Source: a virus | Lineage: Duplodnaviria; Heunggongvirae; Uroviricota; Caudoviricetes | Length of the DNA: 17,104 nucleotides | Virus record (IMG/VR): IMGVR_UViG_2740892269_000010 | Strand: one strand, 5' to 3' | Part shown: positions 1 to 17,104 of the stretch, in pieces | Numbering within the stretch: the stretch's first letter is position 1 | Layout: every line of letters starts with the position of its first letter | Made by a program: the position numbers and the translations under genes | The notes under the pieces: generated by a model | Told to the model about the DNA's origin: nothing | Databases searched by the model: none | Seen by the model: the letters and a program-made list of their open reading frames with translations, nothing else

Positions 1-53
1 CTGGGGAATATCTCCCCGGCAGCCTTCAGGGAAAAATATCATCAGATGGCTGC

Positions 54-227
54 TTAAAAAAAGAACAAATGGTAGTGTCCGCTATTGCCAGTACACCTCA
101 GGGTATAAGGGGTTATGGCCACCGGACTACCAAACGGCTGCCAGCCCTCTTTCAGTTTATGTGTCAGCTTTTCCGCAAGATCTGACGGCGGCGCCGCCCT
201 GACAACATCATAGTGTTTAAATGCCAT
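54..227 (-). CDS. Hypothetical small prophage protein (about 57 aa from the internal ATG; the ORF extends to 242)
   Basis: Six-frame ORF 54..242 on the minus strand. The internal ATG at 227-225 is preceded by GGAAAG about 5 nt upstream (reverse complement of 233-238), a plausible Shine-Dalgarno. No motif recognised. Lies in the prophage late-transcription direction. Confidence 0.3.
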   Translation of the reverse strand: MAFKHYDVVRAAPPSDLAEKLTHKLKEGWQPFGSPVAITPYTLRCTGNSGHYHLFFF

Positions 228-487
228 GGTTCTTTCCACCATCTGAAAAATAATTCTTTAAAATACCTGACATGTAATACAGAAAAAACACAAAACCATA
301 CCTTAAATAAAAACCTGATTATCAAGCAGATATGCATGGATAAACTACAAGACGAGATATAAACCACCCTGCATTTAAATAAACAATAAACAACATCAGA
401 AAAATAATTCTGCTCTATGGTTTACATTCAAAAATATCATTTATACTTTTCAGAACATCACCAGCAAGGCATAAACAAGGAAACTAA

Positions 488-823
488 ATGAAGTGGATTG
501 TGATTGATACAGTTATCCAGCCATCATGCGGAATATCTTTTTCAGTCATATGGAGTAAAATAAAATTAATAATCTGGTATCAATCGGATGCTTTCTTACC
601 TCCTGAAAGTATATTTACACTGACTCACACAGGCATCATGCTCAATAACAAAGTGCTACCTGTAACCATTTACAACGTAGTACCATTCAATAAAACATTC
701 TGGAATTCAATCAAAAATAGCCAGGAATGCCCTACAAATACAGATAACGTATTGAATGAATGCTTTAATAACCGTTGCACTCTGCAAATATGTCCTTATG
801 GACTAAAACAACAAAGTCCATAA
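488..823 (+). CDS. Candidate AT-rich cargo (moron-like) ORF, 111 aa, unknown function
   Basis: ATG at 488 preceded by AAGGA (476-480) at 7-nt spacing. Upstream sigma70-like hexamers TTTACA (421-426) and TATACT (442-447). A 9-bp perfect hairpin at 858-879 lies 35 nt after the stop. Very AT-rich compared with flanking DNA. No recognisable domain; in an AT-rich region an ORF of this length could arise by chance. Confidence 0.3.
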
Positions 824-857
824 GGAGTTTACTCACATCTGACAAAATCAATATAAA

Positions 858-879
858 CAGCCCCTCCGGAGAGGGGCTG
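858..879 (-). terminator. Strong GC hairpin, probable rho-independent terminator for minus-strand (phage late-direction) transcripts
   Basis: Stem cagcccctc (858-866), loop cgga, stem gaggggctg (871-879). On the minus strand it is followed by a T-rich tract (complement of aaaatcaatataaa at 844-857). No T-tract on the plus side. Confidence 0.45.
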
Positions 880-1270
880 GAGAGTGGCGCTATGTGCCAT
901 TGCATGGTGCCGGGTGCCTCCCGGTGAATTCAGTACCAGCACCTGAATCCGCGATTATCCCATATACCTACTCGCTGATTGCCCCTCCGCACAGGGGGAT
1001 TCACCATGCCAGTTTCTTTTAACAAACTCCCCGCAAACCAGACAACAGTCAACCGCCTGAATTGTGAAGTATTTAAAAATTTCTCCCGCTAACTGATACC
1101 CGGCTAACAGTCTGGCGTTTTCTTTTTCAGCAACGGGAAAGCAACAACCACCACACCCGCCACCAGCACACCGTCAGCCAGCACTGACATTATCCGGCTG
1201 CTGCAATGCCATTCACAAAAACAGTAAGCAATCACTTTTTACCGTAACAGGTGATAATCCAGATATGTAT

Positions 1271-1624
1271 CTACCCCAGATGAGTAATCCGAAGTTCATC
1301 CATACCACAGGTCCTGGCTATTCTGTTGTACTCCTGAACAAGAGCAAATAATTCTGAATTAGCAACCATGAACTCATCGCAAACCCTCTGTATAGCATCA
1401 CTATTCAGAATAATAACGTCTCTTCCCGAAAGACGATCAGGAGTACAGAACAAAACTGTCAAACGGCTGAAGGCCTTTGCTCGTGCTGCATTGACTATAT
1501 CAATACGCTGCCTAAGGATGAAACACCCCGACGCCTCATCAATATTCACTCTACCCACACCATATGAATGATAAATATTTAATGCTGAAAAAACCATTAG
1601 ACCGTATAACAAACACTCAATCAA
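1271..1624 (-). CDS. Hypothetical ORF (117 aa, TTG-initiated in the ORF track) at the cargo position downstream of the tRNA
   Basis: Six-frame ORF only. The start codon at 1624-1622 is TTG; no clear RBS and no recognisable motif. Could equally be a gene remnant. Confidence 0.22.
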   Translation of the reverse strand: MIECLLYGLMVFSALNIYHSYGVGRVNIDEASGCFILRQRIDIVNAARAKAFSRLTVLFCTPDRLSGRDVIILNSDAIQRVCDEFMVANSELFALVQEYNRIARTCGMDELRITHLG

Positions 1625-1734
1625 TACTTAACAGAACTTTTATTTTTGACAAACATAAAATATTTTCAACAATATCCTGAGCCAGGTATATTTCAGTATA
1701 AGGCTCTGCCGGAAGGAATCTGGAAGAATGAATA

Positions 1735-1811
1735 TGGCGCGCTGTACTGGATTCGAACCAGTGACCGATTGCTTAGAAGGCAATTGNNNNNNNNNNNNNN
1801 NNNNNNNNNNN
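1735..1811 (-). tRNA. tRNA-Arg (anticodon UCU), 3' half visible, 5' part masked by N
   Basis: Reverse complement of 1735-1786 reads caattgccttctaagcaatcggtcactggttcgaatccagtacagcgcgcca. This gives an anticodon stem attgc/gcaat with loop cTTCTAa (anticodon TCT), a T-stem actgg/ccagt with loop TTCGAAT, a 7-nt acceptor 3' strand, discriminator G and an encoded CCA. The 5' end at about 1811 is extrapolated from a 77-nt length. Confidence 0.6.
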
Positions 1812-2077
1812 NNNNNNNNNNNNNNNNNNNNNNNNNNNNNNNNNNNNNNNNNNNNNNNNNNNNNNNNNNNNNNNNNNNNNNNNNNNNNNNNNNNNNNNNN
1901 NNNNNNNNNNNNNNNNNNNNNNNNNNNNNNNNNNNNNNNNNNNNNNNNNNNNNNNNNNNNNNNNNNNNNNNNNNNNNNNNNNNNNNNNNNNNNNNNNNNN
2001 NNNNNNNNNNNNNNNNNNNNNNNNNNNNNNNNNNNNNTGTAGAAACTCTTCTAACGTCAGGCATAAAACGCCCATAG

Positions 2078-2932
2078 TTATGACGAATTTACCACAGATT
2101 CCGGAAAAATCAACCTAGTTACCTTTTTTAACTGCCGCTCAGCCCATGCTTCTTCAATATCAAACCGAGTCACCAGCGCATCATAGAATTTCTTAACTGT
2201 TTTTTCCCATGACGCGCGTGTTATCTGGTTTGTCACCTCGCATATAGCATTAAATGCCTCCGTTGATGGTAGTCTTTCATAGCCACGACCACCACAACGC
2301 TGGCAGTCTCTGATAACAGGCATACCACGTTTTACCGACTCTTCACGATGAATGGCGACACCACGCCCACGGCAATCCTTACAGGCGGTGGAAACCTCAC
2401 CCTTTCCGCCACACTCCGGACAGGCAACTTTTACCACCTCCCTGACTTTTTTCCATTCTTCCCAGTAAGACGGATACACACCTTTCGTACACTTTGCCCA
2501 TACCGGCGGCTTACCATCCGGATACTGGACCTTGTTTGTAAAAACTACGCTTTCAATAAATTTTTCCCCATAGCAACAAGGGCACTGCTTTTTACTCGCT
2601 GCGCTGCGGGCATAATCCTCAAAAGCGTACGAAGCCATAATGCGCATCACTACCGGTTTTATTTCTGCCGGAAGTTTTCTCAACGCCGCCACACGATCGC
2701 ACCGACTGAGTGCATAATCTGCCAGTAATTCTGTTGCCCGCGCCCTGTCATTCATACTGATGCCCATTTTCCCCAGGAACGCAGAAAACCCCATCTCAGC
2801 CCGATTCTGTGTCATGCCCTGCGCGGCCATCACATCAGTGATACTCAGCGCATCTTTTGACGTTGAGGCCGATGCATCGGTCAGGCAAGGGGATTTTGGG
2901 GAGTAGTATTTCGGTAAATCTTCCAGTTTCAT
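2078..2932 (-). CDS. Putative lambdoid late-gene antiterminator (Q-like), 284 aa, with DnaJ-type CxxCxGxG zinc-finger repeats
   Basis: Position is diagnostic: immediately downstream of rusA with a 4-nt overlap (2929-2932) and immediately upstream of the tRNA island, as in lambdoid late-regulatory regions. The protein contains CPECGGKG, CKDCRGRG and CQRCGGRG repeats plus CPCCYGEK. The family assignment is from context, not a recognised alignment. Confidence 0.55.
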   Translation of the reverse strand: MKLEDLPKYYSPKSPCLTDASASTSKDALSITDVMAAQGMTQNRAEMGFSAFLGKMGISMNDRARATELLADYALSRCDRVAALRKLPAEIKPVVMRIMASYAFEDYARSAASKKQCPCCYGEKFIESVVFTNKVQYPDGKPPVWAKCTKGVYPSYWEEWKKVREVVKVACPECGGKGEVSTACKDCRGRGVAIHREESVKRGMPVIRDCQRCGGRGYERLPSTEAFNAICEVTNQITRASWEKTVKKFYDALVTRFDIEEAWAERQLKKVTRLIFPESVVNSS

Positions 2933-3303
2933 TTTTTGACCTGCTCTTCATGCATTATGGGGTAAATCTTCACCCCCAGACGTCCACCAGATACTGGCTG
3001 ACCACGAACGATATTGATTTCATCAAACTGCTCATCGTCCATTAACACTCCCGCATGTGTCAGTGCATCCAGTGGTGCTTTCAGGATATTGTCCAGGTCA
3101 CGACGGCGCTTATCCGGTGGCTCTGCAATAATCTTTATCGCCAGTCTTCCGGACAGGCTTAATTTCAGTCGCTGCTGACGGACAATAAGCGCCACATCCC
3201 GGCGATAACGCTCACCGGCTTTTGATACAAAATATGTGTTGTCACGACGTCGCCAGTAAGTATTCACCGTCGGCGGATAAGGTAAAATAAACTCATGGCG
3301 CAT
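2929..3303 (-). CDS. rusA: RusA-family Holliday junction resolvase (crossover junction endodeoxyribonuclease), 124 aa
   Basis: The protein carries DKRRRDLDN followed by LDAL and an acidic DDEQ cluster, matching the conserved RusA core (K-12 RusA has DRRRRDLDN as I recall it). Typical nin-region position upstream of Q. Confidence 0.85.
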   Translation of the reverse strand: MRHEFILPYPPTVNTYWRRRDNTYFVSKAGERYRRDVALIVRQQRLKLSLSGRLAIKIIAEPPDKRRRDLDNILKAPLDALTHAGVLMDDEQFDEINIVRGQPVSGGRLGVKIYPIMHEEQVKK

Positions 3304-3545
3304 CAGCGCAGCACCTCCTGCACCAGTTTTTCAAACTTTCCGACTCTGGTTTCCAGCTCTGCCACACAGTCCACCAGCTCATCTACTGCTTTCTGTGCGC
3401 GATGCTTCGCCTGCATCAGTTCCCGAAGCGCGGGTACCATATCTTTACGGATAGCGTCTTTTGTTATGCCCGTTTTTTCGAGTTGTTCAGCATGACGCAG
3501 CATTTCCTGCGCGTGTTTACGCAATTGTTCAGGGGTAAAAGTCAT
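3303..3545 (-). CDS. Hypothetical prophage nin-region protein (about 80 aa from the ATG at 3545; the ORF track extends to a TTG at 3560)
   Basis: ORF 3303..3560 on the minus strand. Its stop overlaps the rusA start by 1 nt (TGATG), suggesting translational coupling. Predicted helical, charged protein; no motif recognised. Confidence 0.5.
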   Translation of the reverse strand: MTFTPEQLRKHAQEMLRHAEQLEKTGITKDAIRKDMVPALRELMQAKHRAQKAVDELVDCVAELETRVGKFEKLVQEVLR

Positions 3546-3771
3546 TGTCTGGTTGTTCAAAAGAAACGCTCCATCTTACTGCTGTCAGTTCGTTTATTAC
3601 TGTATCTGCGCGGATTGCCGGGCTTCATGGGAGTGGAAAGCACCCGTGCACTTTCCTGGTCCACAGGCAGAAAATGTCCGTAGACTGGCCCCCTGAATCT
3701 CCAGACAACCAGTATCACTTAAATAAGTGATAGTCTTAATACTAGTTTTTAGACTAGTCATTGGAGTACAG

Positions 3772-4137
3772 ATGATTGATGTCTTAGGGCCGGAGAAACG
3801 CAGACGGCGTACCACACAGGAAAAGATCGCAATTGTGTCAACGCCACGATGTTTGACCGTTATTTGCCATTTTCATGCCCGCTAAATACTTTCGTTAGCC
3901 AGCCAGTTATTTCTCTGGCGTAAGCAATACCAGGAAGGAAGTCTTACTGCTGTCGCCGCCGGAGAACAGGTTGTTCCTGCCTCTGAACTTGCTGCCGCCA
4001 TGAAGCAGATTAAAGAACTCCAGCGCCTGCTCGGCAAGAAAACGATGGAAAATGAACTCCTCAAAGAAGCCGTTGAATATGGACGGGCAAAAAAGTGGAT
4101 AGCGCACGCGCCCTTATTGCCCGGGGATGGGGAGTAA
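3772..4137 (+). pseudogene. insC: IS2 insC (orfA) disrupted by a premature stop at 3883-3885 inside a 60-bp non-homologous block
   Basis: Same start context as copy 2 insC. From 3837 the sequence diverges for exactly 60 nt and carries an in-frame TAA. Homology and frame resume at 3897. Confidence 0.8.
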
Positions 4138-5000
4138 GCTTAGTCAGCCGTTGTCTCCGGGTGTCGCGTGCGCAGTTGCACGTCATTCTCAGACGAACCG
4201 ATGACTGGATGGATGGCCGCCGCAGTCGTCACACTGATGATACGGATGTGCTTCTCCGTATACACCATGTTATCGGAGAGCTGCCCACGTATGGTTATCG
4301 TCGGGTATGGGCGCTGCTTCGCAGACAGGCAGAACTTGATGGTATGCCTGCGATCAATGCCAAACGTGTTTACCGGATCATGCGCCAGAATGCGCTGTTG
4401 CTTGAGCGAAAACCTGCTGTACCGCCATCGAAACGGGCACATACAGGCAGAGTGGCCGTGAAAGAAAGCAATCAGCGATGGTGCTCTGACGGGTTCGAGT
4501 TCTGCTGTGATAACGGAGAGAGACTGCGTGTCACGTTCGCGCTGGACTGCTGTGATCGTGAGGCACTGCACTGGGCGGTGACTACCGGCGGCTTCAACAG
4601 TGAAACAGTACAGGACGTCATGCTGGGAGCGGTGGAACGCCGCTTCGGCAACGATCTTCCGTCGTCTCCAGTGGAGTGGCTGACGGATAATGGTTCATGC
4701 TACCGGGCTAATGAAACACGCCAGTTCGCCCGGATGTTGGGACTTGAACCGAAGAACACGGCGGTGCGGAGTCCGGAGAGTAACGGAATAGCAGAGAGCT
4801 TCGTGAAAACGATAAAGCGTGACTACATCAGTATCATGCCCAAACCAGACGGGTTAACGGCAGCAAAGAACCTTGCAGAGGCGTTCGAGCATTATAACGA
4901 ATGGCATCCGCATAGTGCGCTGGGTTATCGCTCGCCACGGGAATATCTGCGGCAGCGGGCTTGTAATGGGTTAAGTGATAACAGATGTCTGGAAATATAG
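4095..5000 (+). CDS. insD: IS2 transposase OrfB (InsD) reading frame, 301 aa, intact
   Basis: Identical 301-aa translation to copy 2. Normally expressed as an OrfAB fusion by -1 frameshift at the A6G motif (4089-4095); that cannot yield a normal fusion here because orfA is disrupted. Confidence 0.85.
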
Positions 5001-5011
5001 GGGCAAATCCA
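4971..5011 (+). repeat. IS2 right terminal inverted repeat (IRR) of copy 1
   Basis: 41-nt terminus ending in ...ggggcaaatcca. A perfect inverted match to 5248-5288. Confidence 0.9.
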
Positions 5012-5247
5012 NNNNNNNNNNNNNNNNNNNNNNNNNNNNNNNNNNNNNNNNNNNNNNNNNNNNNNNNNNNNNNNNNNNNNNNNNNNNNNNNNNNNNNNNN
5101 NNNNNNNNNNNNNNNNNNNNNNNNNNNNNNNNNNNNNNNNNNNNNNNNNNNNNNNNNNNNNNNNNNNNNNNNNNNNNNNNNNNNNNNNNNNNNNNNNNNN
5201 NNNNNNNNNNNNNNNNNNNNNNNNNNNNNNNNNNNNNNNNNNNNNNN

Positions 5248-5288
5248 TGGATTTGCCCCTATATTTCCAGACATCTGTTATCACTTAA
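5248..5288 (+). repeat. Right-end-type (IRR-like) terminus at the left end of IS2 copy 2
   Basis: tggatttgcccctatatttccagacatctgttatcacttaa is the exact reverse complement of the right ends at 4971-5011 and 6537-6577. From 5289 it continues as normal IS2 left-end interior (ataagtgatagtc...). Confidence 0.85.
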
Positions 5289-5337
5289 ATAAGTGATAGT
5301 CTTAATACTAGTTTTTAGACTAGTCATTGGAGTACAG

Positions 5338-5703
5338 ATGATTGATGTCTTAGGGCCGGAGAAACGCAGACGGCGTACCACACAGGAAAAGATCGCAATT
5401 GTTCAGCAGAGCTTTGAACCGGGGATGACGGTCTCCCTCGTTGCCCGGCAACATGGTGTAGCAGCCAGCCAGTTATTTCTCTGGCGTAAGCAATACCAGG
5501 AAGGAAGTCTTACTGCTGTCGCCGCCGGAGAACAGGTTGTTCCTGCCTCTGAACTTGCTGCCGCCATGAAGCAGATTAAAGAACTCCAGCGCCTGCTCGG
5601 CAAGAAAACGATGGAAAATGAACTCCTCAAAGAAGCCGTTGAATATGGACGGGCAAAAAAGTGGATAGCGCACGCGCCCTTATTGCCCGGGGATGGGGAG
5701 TAA
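5338..5703 (+). CDS. insC: IS2 OrfA (InsC), 121 aa, DNA-binding transposition protein
   Basis: ATG at 5338 ([26 protein letters not shown]...); the ORF track extends upstream to 5293. Ends at 5703, overlapping insD. Confidence 0.9.
5655..5661 (+). other. A6G slippery heptamer for programmed -1 frameshifting between insC and insD
   Basis: aaaaaag at the insC/insD overlap; the same motif is at 4089-4095 in copy 1. Frameshift-dependent OrfAB expression is established for IS2 and the IS3 family. Confidence 0.7.
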
Positions 5704-6566
5704 GCTTAGTCAGCCGTTGTCTCCGGGTGTCGCGTGCGCAGTTGCACGTCATTCTCAGACGAACCGATGACTGGATGGATGGCCGCCGCAGTCGTCACAC
5801 TGATGATACGGATGTGCTTCTCCGTATACACCATGTTATCGGAGAGCTGCCCACGTATGGTTATCGTCGGGTATGGGCGCTGCTTCGCAGACAGGCAGAA
5901 CTTGATGGTATGCCTGCGATCAATGCCAAACGTGTTTACCGGATCATGCGCCAGAATGCGCTGTTGCTTGAGCGAAAACCTGCTGTACCGCCATCGAAAC
6001 GGGCACATACAGGCAGAGTGGCCGTGAAAGAAAGCAATCAGCGATGGTGCTCTGACGGGTTCGAGTTCTGCTGTGATAACGGAGAGAGACTGCGTGTCAC
6101 GTTCGCGCTGGACTGCTGTGATCGTGAGGCACTGCACTGGGCGGTGACTACCGGCGGCTTCAACAGTGAAACAGTACAGGACGTCATGCTGGGAGCGGTG
6201 GAACGCCGCTTCGGCAACGATCTTCCGTCGTCTCCAGTGGAGTGGCTGACGGATAATGGTTCATGCTACCGGGCTAATGAAACACGCCAGTTCGCCCGGA
6301 TGTTGGGACTTGAACCGAAGAACACGGCGGTGCGGAGTCCGGAGAGTAACGGAATAGCAGAGAGCTTCGTGAAAACGATAAAGCGTGACTACATCAGTAT
6401 CATGCCCAAACCAGACGGGTTAACGGCAGCAAAGAACCTTGCAGAGGCGTTCGAGCATTATAACGAATGGCATCCGCATAGTGCGCTGGGTTATCGCTCG
6501 CCACGGGAATATCTGCGGCAGCGGGCTTGTAATGGGTTAAGTGATAACAGATGTCTGGAAATATAG
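5661..6566 (+). CDS. insD: IS2 transposase OrfB (InsD), 301 aa
   Basis: ORF 5661..6566, identical translation to the copy 1 frame. Frame is -1 relative to insC. Confidence 0.9.
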
Positions 6567-6577
6567 GGGCAAATCCA

Positions 6578-6733
6578 GGTACTGCCGAAAATATTCAGAT
6601 AGAGCTGAGGGATGACCAGGATGCTGCGTTAAAAAATGGCGATAGCAAAACGGTTATTGTTGATGAGATCACTCGTAATGCACAGTTTCCACTTAAGGCA
6701 AGAGCTATCACGGTGAATGGAAACGCAAGCTAG
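6578..6733 (+). pseudogene. ydeR: 3' remnant (51 codons) of a fimbrial minor subunit gene truncated by IS2; ydeR-like by gene order
   Basis: In-frame translation from the IS2 boundary reads GTAENIQIELRDDQDAALKNGDSKTVIVDEITRNAQFPLKARAITVNGNAS, a pilin-type C-terminus. It sits directly upstream of the FimH-like ydeQ, the position of ydeR in K-12. No start codon or 5' part is present. Confidence 0.5.
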
Positions 6734-6836
6734 GGAACGATCGAGGCGCTAATCAATGTGATCTACACCTGGCAATAACGTCGATTCGATTTTCTTAGCC
6801 TTCTTTTTAAATCAATTTTTAACCTTAGGATATATC

Positions 6837-7751
6837 ATGGGTAAAACAATCAGTATAAAGGTCCTGTTCGGTATTTATCTTCTATTAATGGCAGGCAAAG
6901 TTTTTGCCTTCAGTTGTAATGTCGATGGCGGGTCAAGTATTGGAGCAGGTACAACCTCTGTTTATGTTAATCTCGACCCTGTAATACAGCCGGGCCAGAA
7001 TCTGGTTGTAGACTTGTCTCAGCATATAAGTTGCTGGAATGATTACGGCGGCTGGTACGACACTGATCATATAAACCTGGTACAAGGCTCAGCTTTCGCA
7101 GGCTCCCTACAGTCATATAAAGGATCGCTGTACTGGAATAATGTGACCTACCCCTTCCCGTTGACGACAAATACCAACGTATTGGATATTGGTGATAAGA
7201 CACCGATGCCATTACCGTTAAAACTCTATATTACCCCAGTTGGGGCGGCCGGTGGAGTTGTCATAAAAGCGGGGGAAGTCATTGCCCGTATTCATATGTA
7301 TAAAATTGCAACATTAGGAAGCGGAAATCCGCGTAATTTTACGTGGAATATTATTTCAAATAACAGTGTTGTTATGCCAACAGGCGGCTGCACCGTTGAT
7401 AGTCGTAATGTCACTGTGGATCTCCCGGACTTTCCTGGAAGCGCAGAAATACCCCTTGGCGTATATTGCTCAAGCGAACAAAAGCTCTCATTTTATCTTT
7501 CGGGTGCCACCACTGACAGTAGCCGACAAGTGTTTGCTAACACAGCACCTGATGCAACAAAAGCATCGGGAGTGGGTGTCACTCTAATGCGTAATGGAAA
7601 AATACTGGCTACGGGAGAAAATGTCTCCCTGGGGACAGTAAATAAAAGCAAAGTACCTCTGGGTTTAAGCGCAACCTATGGACAAACAGGAAACAAGGTT
7701 TCAGCCGGAACCGTCCAGTCAGTCATTGGTGTCACTTTTATCTATGAATAA
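6837..7751 (+). CDS. ydeQ: FimH-family fimbrial tip adhesin homologue, 304 aa
   Basis: Signal-peptide-like N-terminus. Strong collinear similarity to FimH ([51 protein letters not shown]). RBS agga at 6827-6830. Confidence 0.85.
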
Positions 7752-7823
7752 TTGTGATTTTGACCTTAGTCTATGCGCTCCATTCACGAAAATTGCGCAG
7801 ATAATTATTTTGTGAAGGCTATT

Positions 7824-7841
7824 ATCCTACACCTGTAAGAA
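7824..7841 (+). promoter_or_regulatory. Candidate EvgA-box inverted repeat upstream of ydeP
   Basis: ATCCTACA-CC-TGTAAGAA: two half-sites in inverted orientation with a 2-bp spacer, and a near-identical copy upstream of safA (10567-10584). ydeP and safA-ydeO are established EvgA targets. Confidence 0.5.
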
Positions 7842-8084
7842 AATCCGCGCACAATTGAAGCCAGAGTCTTATTTTTTATATTGAAAAATATGTTAATTTA
7901 AACACTATGAGAGATGATGCTTAACTTATCGTATTTAATCTATTGTTTAACGATAATAGATTAAAAATAGAAAGAGAGTAGTCCCCTACTCTTATATATC
8001 CATGTTGGCGATAATCCCTTTGTATGTACTGTGCATCATCGCTATTACAAATCCTAATAATTCATTTCCACACAGGATAAGTAG

Positions 8085-10448
8085 ATGAAGAAAAAAATTG
8101 AATCCTACCAGGGTGCTGCAGGTGGTTGGGGTGCTGTTAAATCCGTAGCGAATGCAGTACGTAAGCAGATGGATATACGCCATGATGTTATTGCCATGTT
8201 TGACATGAATAAGCCAGAGGGCTTTGACTGTCCGGGTTGTGCATGGCCAGATCCTAAGCACAGTGCGTCATTCGACATTTGTGAAAACGGCGCAAAAGCA
8301 ATCGCCTGGGAAGTCACGGATAAGCAGGTAAATGCCTCTTTCTTTGCTGAGAATACGGTTCAATCATTACTTACCTGGGGAGATCACGAGCTTGAGGCTG
8401 CGGGGCGTCTCACTCAGCCTTTGAAATATGATGCCGTCAGCGACTGTTACAAGCCATTAAGCTGGCAACAAGCTTTCGACGAAATTGGCGCACGCCTTCA
8501 AAGCTATAGTGATCCCAATCAGGTTGAATTCTATACTTCGGGCCGCACTTCCAATGAAGCTGCCTTTCTTTATCAGCTTTTTGCCCGTGAATACGGGAGC
8601 AATAACTTTCCCGACTGCTCCAACATGTGCCATGAACCGACAAGCGTGGGTTTGGCAGCGAGTATCGGTGTAGGTAAAGGGACCGTGTTGCTGGAAGACT
8701 TTGAGAAGTGCGATTTAGTCATTTGCATTGGGCATAACCCTGGTACAAACCACCCTCGCATGCTGACTTCGTTGCGCGCTTTAGTGAAACGGGGAGCGAA
8801 AATGATCGCCATCAATCCTCTACAGGAACGTGGCCTGGAGCGATTTACCGCACCGCAAAACCCGTTTGAAATGCTGACGAACTCTGAGACTCAGTTGGCC
8901 AGTGCCTACTACAACGTGCGCATTGGTGGCGATATGGCGTTGCTCAAGGGGATGATGCGCCTGTTAATTGAGCGCGATGATGCTGCAAGTGCCGCAGGTC
9001 GGCCCTCATTGCTTGATGACGAATTTATTCAAACGCATACCGTCGGCTTTGACGAGCTACGCCGTGACGTTCTCAATTCCGAGTGGAAAGATATCGAACG
9101 TATTTCTGGACTAAGTCAGACACAAATCGCCGAACTGGCTGACGCATATGCCGCTGCCGATCGCACCATTATCTGTTACGGAATGGGGATCACTCAGCAC
9201 GAACATGGTACCCAGAATGTACAGCAACTGGTCAATCTGCTGTTGATGAAAGGTAACATTGGCAAGCCTGGTGCGGGTATCTGCCCACTACGAGGTCACT
9301 CTAATGTACAGGGCGACCGAACCGTCGGTATCACCGAGAAACCGTCTGCAGAGTTTCTGGCTCGCCTGGGTGAGCGCTATGGCTTCACCCCACCTCATGC
9401 ACCTGGACATGCTGCAATTGCCAGCATGCAAGCAATATGCACGGGGCAGGCTCGAGCATTGATCTGCATGGGGGGCAACTTTGCACTGGCAATGCCAGAT
9501 CGGGAAGCGAGCGCTGTACCGTTAACGCAATTAGATTTGGCGGTACACGTAGCCACTAAGCTTAACCGCTCTCATCTGCTGACCGCACGGCATAGCTATA
9601 TTCTGCCGGTTCTGGGGCGTAGCGAGATTGACATGCAAAAAAGCGGTGCGCAGGCGGTAACCGTTGAGGATTCAATGTNNNNNNNNNNNNNNNNNNNNNN
9701 NNNNNNNNNNNNNNNNNNNNNNNNNNNNNNNNNNNNNNNNNNNNNNNNNNNNNNNNNNNNNNNNNNNNNNNNNNNNNNNNNNNNNNNNNNNNNNNNNNNN
9801 NNNNNNNNNNNNNNNNNNNNNNNNNNNNNNNNNNNNNNNNNNNNNNNNNNNNNNNNNNNNNNNNNNNNNNNNNNNNNNNNNNNNNNNNNNNNNNNNNNNN
9901 NNNNNNNNNNNNNNNNNNNNNNNNNNNNGTTACCAGAGTTCGCCGACTATAACCAGCGCATCCGACATCCTGGAGGTTTTCACCTGATAAATGCAGCTGC
10001 TGAAAGGCGCTGGATGACGCCGTCAGGTAAGGCTAATTTCATTACCAGCAAAGGGCTGTTAGAAGATCCCTCTTCAGCGTTTAACAGTAAGCTGGTCATG
10101 GCGACAGTACGTAGCCACGATCAGTACAACACGACGATTTATGGTATGGATGATCGCTATCGAGGGGTATTCGGTCAACGAGATGTGGTCTTTATGAGTG
10201 CTAAACAAGCTAAAATTTGCCGTGTAAAAAACGGCGAAAGAGTTAATCTTATTGCGCTTACGCCAGACGGTAAGCGCAGCTCACGCCGCATGGATAGATT
10301 AAAAGTGGTCATTTACCCTATGGCTGACCGCTCACTGGTGACCTATTTTCCAGAATCGAATCACATGCTAACTCTTGATAACCACGATCCATTAAGTGGC
10401 ATTCCTGGTTATAAAAGTATTCCGGTTGAATTAGAACCATCAAATTAA
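8085..10448 (+). CDS. ydeP: YdeP, molybdopterin oxidoreductase family (formate dehydrogenase-like) acid-resistance protein
   Basis: 787-codon ORF; the middle is N-masked (9679-9928) but the frame is preserved. N-terminal Cys cluster CPGCAW...C. AGGA RBS 7 nt before the ATG at 8085; the in-frame ATG at 8169 (MDIRH...) would give the 759-aa form I recall for K-12. Confidence 0.9.
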
Positions 10449-10967: not shown

Positions 10968-11735
10968 ATGTCGCTCGTTTGTTCTGTTATATTTATTCAT
11001 CATGCCTTCAACGCTAACATTTTAGATAAAGATTACGCCTTCTCTGACGGCGAGATCCTGATGGTAGATAACGCTGTTCGTACGCATTTTGAACCTTATG
11101 AGCGGCATTTTAAAGAGATCGGATTTACTGAAAATACCATTAAAAAATATCTACAATGCACTAACATNNNNNNNNNNNNNNNNNNNNNNNNNNNNNNNNN
11201 NNNNNNNNNNNNNNNNNNNNNNNNNNNNNNNNNNNNNNNNNNNNNNNNNNNNNNNNNNNNNNNNNNNNNNNNNNNNNNNNNNNNNNNNNNNNNNNNNNNN
11301 NNNNNNNNNNNNNNNNNNNNNNNNNNNNNNNNNNNNNNNNNNNNNNNNNNNNNNNNNNNNNNNNNNNNNNNNNNNNNNNNNNNNNNNNNNNNNNNNNNNN
11401 NNNNNNNNNNNNNNNNNNNNCCATGGAAGCTGAAAGATATTTGTGACTGCCTGTACATCAGTGAAAGCCTGTTGAAGAAAAAACTAAAGCAAGAGCAAAC
11501 GACATTCTCACAGATTCTATTAGATGCCAGAATGCAGCACGCAAAAAATTTGATACGCGTAGAAGGTTCAGTCAATAAAATTGCCGAACAATGTGGTTAT
11601 GCCAGTACATCTTATTTTATTTATGCGTTCCGCAAACATTTCGGCAACAGTCCGAAGAGAGTTTCTAAGGAGTACCGTTGTCAAAGTCACATGGGTATGA
11701 ATACGGGCAACACGATGAGTGCTTTAGCTATTTGA
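10968..11735 (+). CDS. ydeO: YdeO, AraC-family acid-resistance transcriptional activator
   Basis: RBS aaggag at 10957-10962. N-terminus MSLVCSVIFIHHAFNANILDKDYAF and a C-terminal AraC HTH (KIAEQCGYASTSYFIYAFRKHFGNSPKRV). The middle is N-masked (11168-11420). Confidence 0.9.
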   Translation: MSLVCSVIFIHHAFNANILDKDYAFSDGEILMVDNAVRTHFEPYERHFKEIGFTENTIKKYLQCTNXXXXXXXXXXXXXXXXXXXXXXXXXXXXXXXXXXXXXXXXXXXXXXXXXXXXXXXXXXXXXXXXXXXXXXXXXXXXXXXXXXXXXPWKLKDICDCLYISESLLKKKLKQEQTTFSQILLDARMQHAKNLIRVEGSVNKIAEQCGYASTSYFIYAFRKHFGNSPKRVSKEYRCQSHMGMNTGNTMSALAI

Positions 11736-17009: not shown

Positions 17010-17040
17010 CAACAATAAAAGCCCTGCTGTACGGAGTAAT

Positions 17041-17074
17041 GCCAGTCAGTTAAGCAACTGACTGGCTCTTTTTC
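17041..17074 (+). terminator. Rho-independent terminator after yddA
   Basis: Stem gccagtcag / ctgactggc with loop ttaagcaa, followed by tctttttc. Confidence 0.7.
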
Positions 17075-17104
17075 GGGGCTGTGGGGTATTTCCAGGGCCT
17101 CTCC

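Follow-up and report, generated by a model that had tools for sequence, protein, structure and literature searches.

The closest described relatives of the locus analysed here are the insertion sequence IS2, an IS3-family element of about 1,331 bp, and laboratory versions of it with two right ends. In these versions both ends act as donors and most circle junctions (~90%) have spacers of 2 to 3 bp; Pjunc, which forms from a right end (IRR) next to a left end (IRL), needs a 1-bp spacer (Lewis and co-workers, PMC3299598). Here, we analysed two IS2 copies within a window of 17,104 nt, by which we mean the whole stretch of DNA under study. Both copies agree with IS2 in length, termini and coding layout. 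Copy 2 differs by an IRR-type left end in place of the 42-bp IRL, and copy 1 by 60 nt of IS21-family sequence at element positions 157-216 and a truncated orfA. Copy 2 shares IRR sequence at both termini with the laboratory two-right-end IS2, but the latter are engineered plasmid constructs, whereas the copy in the window would be a chromosomal one of unproven existence.

Two arrangements in other genomes were also compared with the window. The IS2::IS21 composite at a prophage locus (Site A) in L001, L003, L010, L011 and other loci shares with copy 1 the left flank, GTCCG, the initial 156 positions of IS2 and the 60 nt at the tip of the IS21-family element, but it contains a whole istA/istB element of ~2 kb, whereas in the window the istB stop codon is followed directly by IS2 position 217. 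Nested or adjacent IS2 copies, in which IS2 lies in or beside another IS2 and ends are closely spaced, were found in finished genomes (L025, L071, L024 and L026), yet every IS2 end there is a canonical IRL or IRR and none is chimeric as in the window.

Layout of the window and its N runs

Direct repeats at an offset of 1,566 nt correspond to copy 1 (3681-5011) and copy 2 (5248-6577), in agreement with the first-pass annotation, whose coordinates and orientation for two direct copies were borne out (Table 1). Between 3897 and 5011 copy 1 shows no difference from copy 2, and the sequence underlying the IS2 matches carries the annotation "IS3-like element IS2 family transposase." Outside the pair, the sequence reads GTCCG before copy 1 and GGTAC after copy 2, while the inner flanks of both copies, where the partner half of any 5-bp target-site duplication would lie, are under Ns. 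At its left edge the window begins 100 nt within an IS3-family end, at its right edge it breaks off 72 to 82 nt within an IS4-family end, and such edges inside other IS elements are typical of a whole draft contig or scaffold. Two complete 1.3-kb repeats are not normal in one short-read contig. The record resembles a short scaffold from a draft Shigella sonnei-type genome. Its unique left flank is base-identical to finished S. sonnei sequences (L001, L003 and L010), its right flank is 99.9 to 100% identical, and the flanks contain no strain-specific variant; the sampling of S. sonnei chromosomes was limited to 22 loci from two junction look-ups.

Table 1. Features around the two IS2 copies, in window coordinates
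Feature	Position	Strand	Remark
GTCCG, left copy of the 5-bp target-site duplication, Site A	3676..3680	+	right copy would be under the N run
IS2 copy 1	3681..5011	+	1,331 nt; canonical 42-bp IRL and 41-bp IRR; defective
Non-IS2 patch, 60 nt	3837..3896	+	istB-proximal IS21-family terminus, tip to istB stop codon
IRR of copy 1	4971..5011	+	outer tip at 5011 adjoins the N run
N run, 236 Ns	5012..5247	.	possibly original scaffold gap; both edges exactly at IS2 termini
IS2 copy 2	5248..6577	+	1,330 nt; coding-intact
Left end of copy 2	5248..5288	+	exact inverted 41-bp IRR replacing the 42-bp IRL
TATCACTTAA core	5279..5288	+	common to IRL and inverted IRR; holds the switch point; from alignment
IRR of copy 2	6537..6577	+	canonical right end
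ydeR 3' remnant (fimbrial gene), Site B	6578..6733	+	IS2 joined after ...AATGAA, before GGTACTGCC, of intact ydeR

The stretch between the copies had been read earlier as a spacer of 236 nt, but it is merely an N run. The window holds four such runs, and for three of them the real bases could be read from near-identical genomes: 251, 250 and 253 Ns conceal 263, 166 and 247 bases, respectively. Since these run lengths misstate the real lengths, the true length at 5012-5247 cannot be read from its 236 Ns, and N runs in windows of this kind should not be taken as a report of real distances. A "159-nt inverted repeat" returned by the repeat search was N matching N and was discarded. Both edges of the run at 5012-5247 coincide exactly with IS2 termini, whereas the other three runs cut through a tRNA and coding sequence. 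Coinciding edges would be expected from an extension that halts on entering a repeat, but not from a mask placed at random.

The left end of copy 2

Positions 5248-5288 are 100% complementary to the right end of copy 2 (6537-6577) and likewise to that of copy 1 (4971-5011), which bears out both the exact inverted 41-nt IRR noted earlier at the start of copy 2 and the perfect 41-bp inverted repeat formed by 4971-5011 and 5248-5288. The match is far beyond chance, yet it is simply the right end of IS2 itself. In the terminus alignment that had been suggested as a check, IRL and inverted IRR agree at 29 of 42 columns, and the switch to the IS2 left interior, also noted before, falls exactly within TATCACTTAA, the sole stretch of perfect homology between the two. 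Copy 1 has canonical termini on both sides (TAGACTGG... and ...CAAATCCA), whereas in copy 2 the IRR is canonical and the left terminus is the inverted IRR.

Apart from this end, copy 2 is intact. It encodes an orfA of 121 aa and an orfB of 301 aa with an A6G frameshift window (AAAAAAG) at 5654-5660, that is, the full IS2 arrangement in which a -1 frameshift yields the OrfAB transposase. It also retains the PIRL region and the OrfA site TAAATAA (element positions according to PMC3299598). Over 5256-9678, identity to the finished S. sonnei locus L013 is 99.8%, with seven of the eight differences lying within the swapped end.

No counterpart of the chimeric end was detected. A 35-mer over the switch (CCAGACATCTGTTATCACTTAAATAAGTGATAGTC) gave no match in species-representative genomes, JGI metagenomes or IMG/VR, and searches of 5,426 complete E. 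coli genomes and of PLSDB gave no match over the full length of the end; as a control, the canonical IRL was found in 33 stretches of the species-representative genomes and in 60 stretches within the fetched loci. The genome search for IS2 with an IRR-type left end, as proposed in the first-pass annotation, thus yielded none in the collections searched, and an exact-protein look-up of the 40-aa ORF spanning the end returned no record. Two-piece matches (H66-H68 and H126) turned out to be nested or adjacent canonical IS2 copies.

IS21-family sequence in copy 1 and the two insertion sites

The patch in copy 1 replaces IS2 positions 157-216 exactly in register, so that the copy still measures 1,331 nt, and it differs from copy 2 at 45 of 60 positions. 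It had been passed over in the earlier description of copy 1, of which the canonical termini stand; canonical IS2 throughout does not, given the patch and an orfA that ends after 37 codons. Copy 1 accordingly lacks the orfA/orfB arrangement of IS2. L011 as well as Site-B loci contain the same 60 nt as the stretch from tip to istB stop codon, and in L011 they continue into istB. In these loci the terminal sequence is contiguous with istB and istA, genes named "IS21-like element IS21 family" by PGAP, as expected for an IS21-family end, whereas the window itself contains neither gene. Shuffling, reversal or complementation of the replaced IS2 segment was ruled out by comparison as a source of the patch.

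At Site A, where a prophage gene occupies 3303-3560, the window corresponds to L011 in two blocks (2038-3897 to 3259-5118, and 3897-5011 to 7136-8250), and 2,018 nt are absent here. All nine S. sonnei Site-A loci carry the full ~2-kb IS21-family insertion at the patch site within an IS2::IS21 composite of 3,349 nt from tip to tip with a GTCCG duplication, and none of the nine contains the patch junction of copy 1. In L001, L003, L010 and L011, the left flank reads ...AATGTCCG before the IRL, and GTCCGTTATAAAAACGCC follows the IRR tip. GTCCG lies on both sides of the Site-A IS2 in finished genomes, and a unique island of 41 nt separates its IRR from the next IS. The C/G difference at 3954/5520 (C in finished Site-A copies, G in the draft L011) does not discriminate site-specific from generic IS2.

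The odd junctions of the window, CTTTCGTTA followed by GCCAGCC and CTGTTATCACTTAA followed by ATAAGTG (spanning k-mers CTTTCGTTAGCCAGCC and CTGTTATCACTTAAATAAGTG), were both otherwise absent from every collection searched. Exact-protein look-ups matched the 37-aa truncated OrfA only in two S. sonnei drafts, both with the full IS21 element; they gave no record for the 60-aa ORF spanning the patch junction and only unrelated IS2 copies for a 45-aa OrfA remnant. Of the two-piece matches to the patch region (H106 and H108), one was an IS2 lying within another IS2 and the other an IS21 insertion elsewhere in IS2.

To the right of copy 2, the window joins ydeR (Site B), followed by ydeQ at 6837-7751; for ydeR, locus L023 of the K-12 derivative C600 provided an intact version. 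The same IS2-ydeR junction occurs in 2,444 collection blocks and is widespread in S. sonnei assemblies. In L013, ydeR carries a full direct IS2 (8696-10027) without target duplication, and ~2.6 kb upstream of it lies an inverted IS2 3' fragment (inverted IRR tip at 6072). The arrangement of Site B differs among the finished genomes L013, L014, L016 and L020. A 4-nt shared flank (GGTA) at the inverted fragment proved to be a chance BLAST extension, and a simple two-right-end composite with target duplication was rejected for the cluster, as the left flank of the fragment is not ydeR. Sites A and B lie ~365 kb apart in CP049169.1, the sole finished genome found in both look-ups, whose left flank is identical to that of the window.

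Origin of the two-right-end arrangement

Most likely, the region from ~3897 to 6301 is not a faithful copy of a chromosome, and the IS21-type patch is the best indication that the record cannot be relied on here. A natural deletion of 2,018 nt is very unlikely, since it would have restored the length of IS2 to the base without homology at the joint, whereas the exact 1,331 nt would be the natural outcome of a coordinate-based overlay or of iterative polishing. From the sequence itself, the junctions unique to this window, the exact coincidence in length and the separation of the two sites, all of them observed, we infer an artefact of scaffolding, gap filling or polishing in an IS-dense region. 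We rank this explanation first and hold it somewhat probable; assembly collapse had been mentioned before as one option among several.

In such an event, contigs from the lambdoid prophage (Site A) and from ydeR'-ydeQ-ydeP (Site B) would have been brought together via multicopy IS2, and generic IS2 sequence would then have been laid on each side of an unresolved gap. Draft assemblies readily miss a piece as short as the 41-nt island at Site A, and the resulting gap would lie exactly at the tip of IS2. True local junctions would be visible only at the edges of the overlaid region: on the left, the junction between IS2 position 156 and the IS21-family tip, which finished genomes have at Site A; on the right, the inverted IRR tip, which in such genomes delimits the Site-B IS cluster. 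The two-right-end IS2 and the palindrome may then be by-products of in-register overlay or polishing and not a new end structure.

Several points speak against an artefact. Because no new k-mers can arise in a plain de Bruijn-graph assembler, this reading must assume post-processing such as merging, gap filling, polishing or reference guidance. The two edges are also unlike, as the left one keeps a 60-nt unaligned tail and the right one switches at the end of the IRL/IRR similarity; a single assembly procedure giving both alike was sought, and none was derived. Moreover, IS elements have extensively rearranged the chromosomes of S. sonnei, and with the variation seen at Site B, a joining of Sites A and B is not implausible by itself.

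A real, rare rearrangement in S. sonnei, in which an authentic IS2 came to carry an inverted IRR in place of its IRL, is the next candidate, although we consider it unlikely. In the arrangement of L013, a deletion between the TATCACTTAA of the inverted Site-B fragment and that in the IRL of the full IS2 would yield the window from 5248 onwards exactly; alternatively, repair of an IRL/IRR snap-back duplex could have homogenised the imperfect terminal repeats. The position of the switch in the only stretch of perfect homology, the otherwise intact copy 2 and the documented behaviour of two-right-end constructs (PMC3299598) speak for a real structure. However, the deletion predicts a unique flank, ...ATCTAAACTATC, to the left of 5248 and gives no reason for readable sequence to end at the tip. 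The chimeric junction is missing from all collections searched, and a second, independent in-register anomaly without a natural mechanism lies close by in copy 1; three unusual events would be needed within 3 kb. A natural chromosomal S. sonnei IS2 with a perfect 41-bp IRR at both ends, created by microhomology deletion or repeat homogenisation, appears doubtful, a shade more so than a real rearrangement as such.

We regard as very improbable that the IRR tips at 5011 and 5248, which face each other over the N run, are a relic or active end-to-end junction of the minicircle or IS-dimer type. IRR-IRR junctions do form from two-right-end IS2 constructs, but their functional spacing is 1 to 3 bp (PMC3299598), and a spacer of a few bp is unlikely because the other three N runs hide 166 to 263 real bases. 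Facing IRR tips within 700 nt were not found in 810 kb of fetched loci, and at Site A the IRR is followed by GTCCG and by prophage and IS sequence in all finished genomes. The facing partner in the window is of the IRR type and not the IRL of an IRR-IRL Pjunc junction.

A small MITE-like element of ~318 bp bounded by IS2 ends, proposed in the first-pass annotation and with the perfect 41-bp inverted repeat as its sole support, has a negligible chance and is refuted by orientation: a MITE requires its tips on the outside, whereas here the outer termini of the arms (...AAATCCA at 5011 and TGGATTT... at 5248) adjoin the N run and the inner ends point away, so that the arms are the ends of the flanking IS2 copies and the hidden stretch lies outside both.

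Returning to the favoured artefact, the locus calls for caution, as gap-adjacent sequence in IS-dense Shigella drafts may be generic repeat laid in register. A real copy 2 would be the equivalent in nature of the two-right-end mutants made in the laboratory. The earlier suggestion that such a copy could behave differently is mechanistically sensible and has been explored in those constructs, while its existence in a cell is unproven. Judging from PIRL, the OrfA site and the intact reading frames, it would be expression-competent, and by analogy with the constructs either of its ends should serve as donor and its circles should lack a working Pjunc. Transposition should start from either side and fail at the integration step. 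For specialists of the IS3 family, such a copy would allow a test in nature of why the two ends of IS2 have stayed unlike, a question that the laboratory versions have mostly answered already.

Structure of the two IS2 copies and the N runs

Both IS2 copies in the window are plain IS2 in family and form direct repeats whose matching positions are always 1,566 nt apart. Analysis of the left end of copy 2, the copy to the right of the Ns, bore out the first-pass annotation: the sequence over 5248-5288 matches, without a mismatch, the reverse complement of the 41-bp IS2 right end (IRR) seen at 4971-5011 and 6537-6577, and normal left-interior sequence follows from 5289. Of the 42 columns in an alignment of the 42-bp IS2 left end (IRL) with the inverted IRR, 29 are identical; copy 2 changes from right-end to left-end sequence within TATCACTTAA, the sole long stretch that is identical in both. 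Copy 1 is a defective IS2. At 3837-3896, 45 of 60 bases are unlike copy 2, and these 60 nt reproduce exactly one terminus of an IS21-family element, spanning its tip through the istB stop codon, so that orfA of copy 1 ends after 37 codons.

IS2 copies and N runs of the window, and order of the Site-B IS cluster in finished genomes
Feature	Position	Length in window	Real bases	Remarks
IS2 copy 1	3681-5011	1,331 nt		Direct repeat of copy 2
IS2 copy 2	5248-6577	1,330 nt		Direct repeat of copy 1
N run	1787-2037	251 Ns	263	
N run	5012-5247	236 Ns		Separates both IS2 copies
N run	9679-9928	250 Ns	166	
N run	11168-11420	253 Ns	247	
Site-B cluster 1	Leftmost			Inverted IS2 3' fragment; IRR tip is the left boundary
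Site-B cluster 2				Partial IS3-family element
Site-B cluster 3				IS21-family element
Site-B cluster 4	Rightmost			276-nt IS2 end, or (L013) full IS2 joined to ydeR

Three of the four N runs (236 to 253 nt each) were recoverable from near-identical Shigella genomes. The number of Ns differed from the number of real bases in all three, so the length of a run is uninformative on how much it replaces; neither the 236-nt spacer nor the insert of about 318 bp proposed earlier is a measurement. Because of these differences, the ydeP and ydeO frames are inflated in the window (787 versus 759 and 255 versus 253 amino acids, respectively). The run at 1787-2037, corresponding to 2996-3258 in the comparison locus L011, masks part of a prophage tRNA cluster; its edge severs a tRNA-Arg(tct) gene (L011 2944-3020), and a tRNA-Met(cat) gene (L011 3121-3196) lies within it.

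Sites A and B in finished genomes

On both flanks, the window consists of Shigella sonnei chromosomal DNA. Site A, the left flank (1-3680), is a lambdoid prophage region with the Q antiterminator, RusA, and neighboring genes and is base-identical to three finished genomes (L001, L003, and L010). Site B, the right flank, retains the 3' part of the fimbrial gene ydeR and then ydeQ, ydeP, safA, ydeO, and further genes; it is 99.9 to 100% identical to many S. sonnei genomes. In CP049169.1, the sole finished genome in both junction look-ups, ~365 kb separate the two sites, which share one orientation. The ydeR remnant reads TAG at 6731-6733 versus CAG in the K-12 derivative C600; this change, too, is inactivating, in a gene that was disrupted already.

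At each of the nine Site-A loci, a complete ~2-kb IS21-family element sits within the IS2; the composite measures 3,349 nt between its IRL and IRR tips and lies between the two copies of a GTCCG duplication. Set against every one of these loci, the window is 2,018 nt short: the missing stretch begins directly after the istB stop codon and finishes 14 nt into the resumed IS2, with no homology at the joint, and copy 1 still measures the canonical 1,331 nt to the base. In finished genomes, the unique DNA between the Site-A IS2 and the IS that follows it amounts to only 41 nt. Comparison of L011 (5058-7121) with intact IS2 shows that IS2 is 46 nt shorter (positions 157-202 are missing) where the IS21-family element inserted, in lieu of a simple target duplication. 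The same IS21-family element was found at a different IS2 position in Escherichia coli FDAARGOS_1303 (NZ_CP070045.1, 1018565-1024963); IS2 has therefore been targeted by it more than once.

Site B is an IS cluster in finished genomes. In two of the loci (L013, 6072-10027; L016, 7092-10027), an IS2 right end closes this ydeR-adjacent cluster on either side, as an inverted IRR tip at the left and a direct IRR at the right. The cluster has no target duplication, its left flank is not ydeR, and pieces of IS2, IS3-family, and IS21-family elements make it up as a natural mosaic.

Origin of the two anomalies

A 35-mer across the switch in copy 2 had no match in 185,579 species-representative genomes, JGI metagenomes, IMG/VR viral contigs, or 810 kb of fetched loci, and a full-length match to the chimeric left end was not found in 5,426 complete E. 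coli genomes or PLSDB plasmids. The canonical IRL pattern, searched for as a control, gave 33 stretches in the species-representative genomes and 60 in the fetched loci. The other junction, from the IS21 tip into IS2 position 217, was not found in any collection searched, including the fetched loci; for both junctions, the S. sonnei chromosome was sampled through only 22 loci from two junction look-ups. In E. coli WG1 and on a plasmid of E. coli CH425, full IS2 elements sit inside other copies or fragments of IS2, which brings canonical IS2 ends close together.

On balance, we lean towards the middle of the window being an artefact, judging from the patch in copy 1, the gap edges, the window edges, and the edge junctions. 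The in-register patch could readily result from coordinate-based merging of a junction contig with generic IS2, or alternatively from repeated in-register polishing; we know of no natural process favoring an in-register loss of 2,018 nt with a 1,331-nt result. The edges of 5012-5247 are exact IS2 termini, the point at which extension into the repeat would stop; at the other three N runs, the cuts fall at arbitrary positions in a tRNA gene and coding sequence. The first 100 nt of the window are the right end of an IS3-family element (1-100; orfA of 100 and orfB of 272 amino acids in L012), which we take to be IS600-like, and the last 72 to 82 nt belong to an IS4-family element (17023-17104), suggesting that the window is an entire draft scaffold. 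The two anomalies would then be true local junction sequences, namely, the IS2(156)/IS21-tip junction as present at Site A and the inverted IRR tip as at the left boundary of the Site-B cluster, with generic IS2 filling the interval. The 41-nt unique piece at Site A may easily have been dropped in a draft, leaving a gap at the IS2 tip. No single procedure known to us would handle the two edges alike. The observation of the first-pass annotation is confirmed in part, and its interpretation is supported in part because assembly collapse was on its list; the special end that it ascribed to copy 2 is most likely not real.

It is doubtful, if conceivable, that copy 2 is a real IS2 with an IRR-type left end. 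In the layout of L013, removal of 2.6 kb between two TATCACTTAA cores would yield copy 2 exactly, and repair of an IRL/IRR snap-back duplex could likewise do so. An end-to-end junction of the facing IRR tips is unlikely, since it requires 1 to 3 bp between the tips and the other N runs hide 166 to 263 bases. The previously suggested MITE-like insert bounded by IS2 ends is ruled out, as each 41-nt arm has its outer tip turned towards the hidden stretch.

Expected behavior of an IS2 with two right ends

The reading frames of copy 2 are intact, and both the OrfA docking site (TAAATAA) and the PIRL region are retained; if real, copy 2 would thus be expressed. The IRL of IS2 is an exclusive recipient end without donor function; in IS2 elements with two right ends both ends act as donors, and ~90% of the circle junctions have 2- to 3-bp spacers; Pjunc is functional only with a 1-bp spacer (Lewis et al., PMC3299598). 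The change of the IRL tip from TAGACT to TGGATT would presumably also abolish the Pjunc -10 element. As two-right-end constructs have been characterized (PMC3299598), the predicted behavior of copy 2 is already known. If real, copy 2 would be a natural IS2 variant whose behavior has been explored in the laboratory, and a natural two-right-end IS2 would be a modest addition to the work on such constructs.
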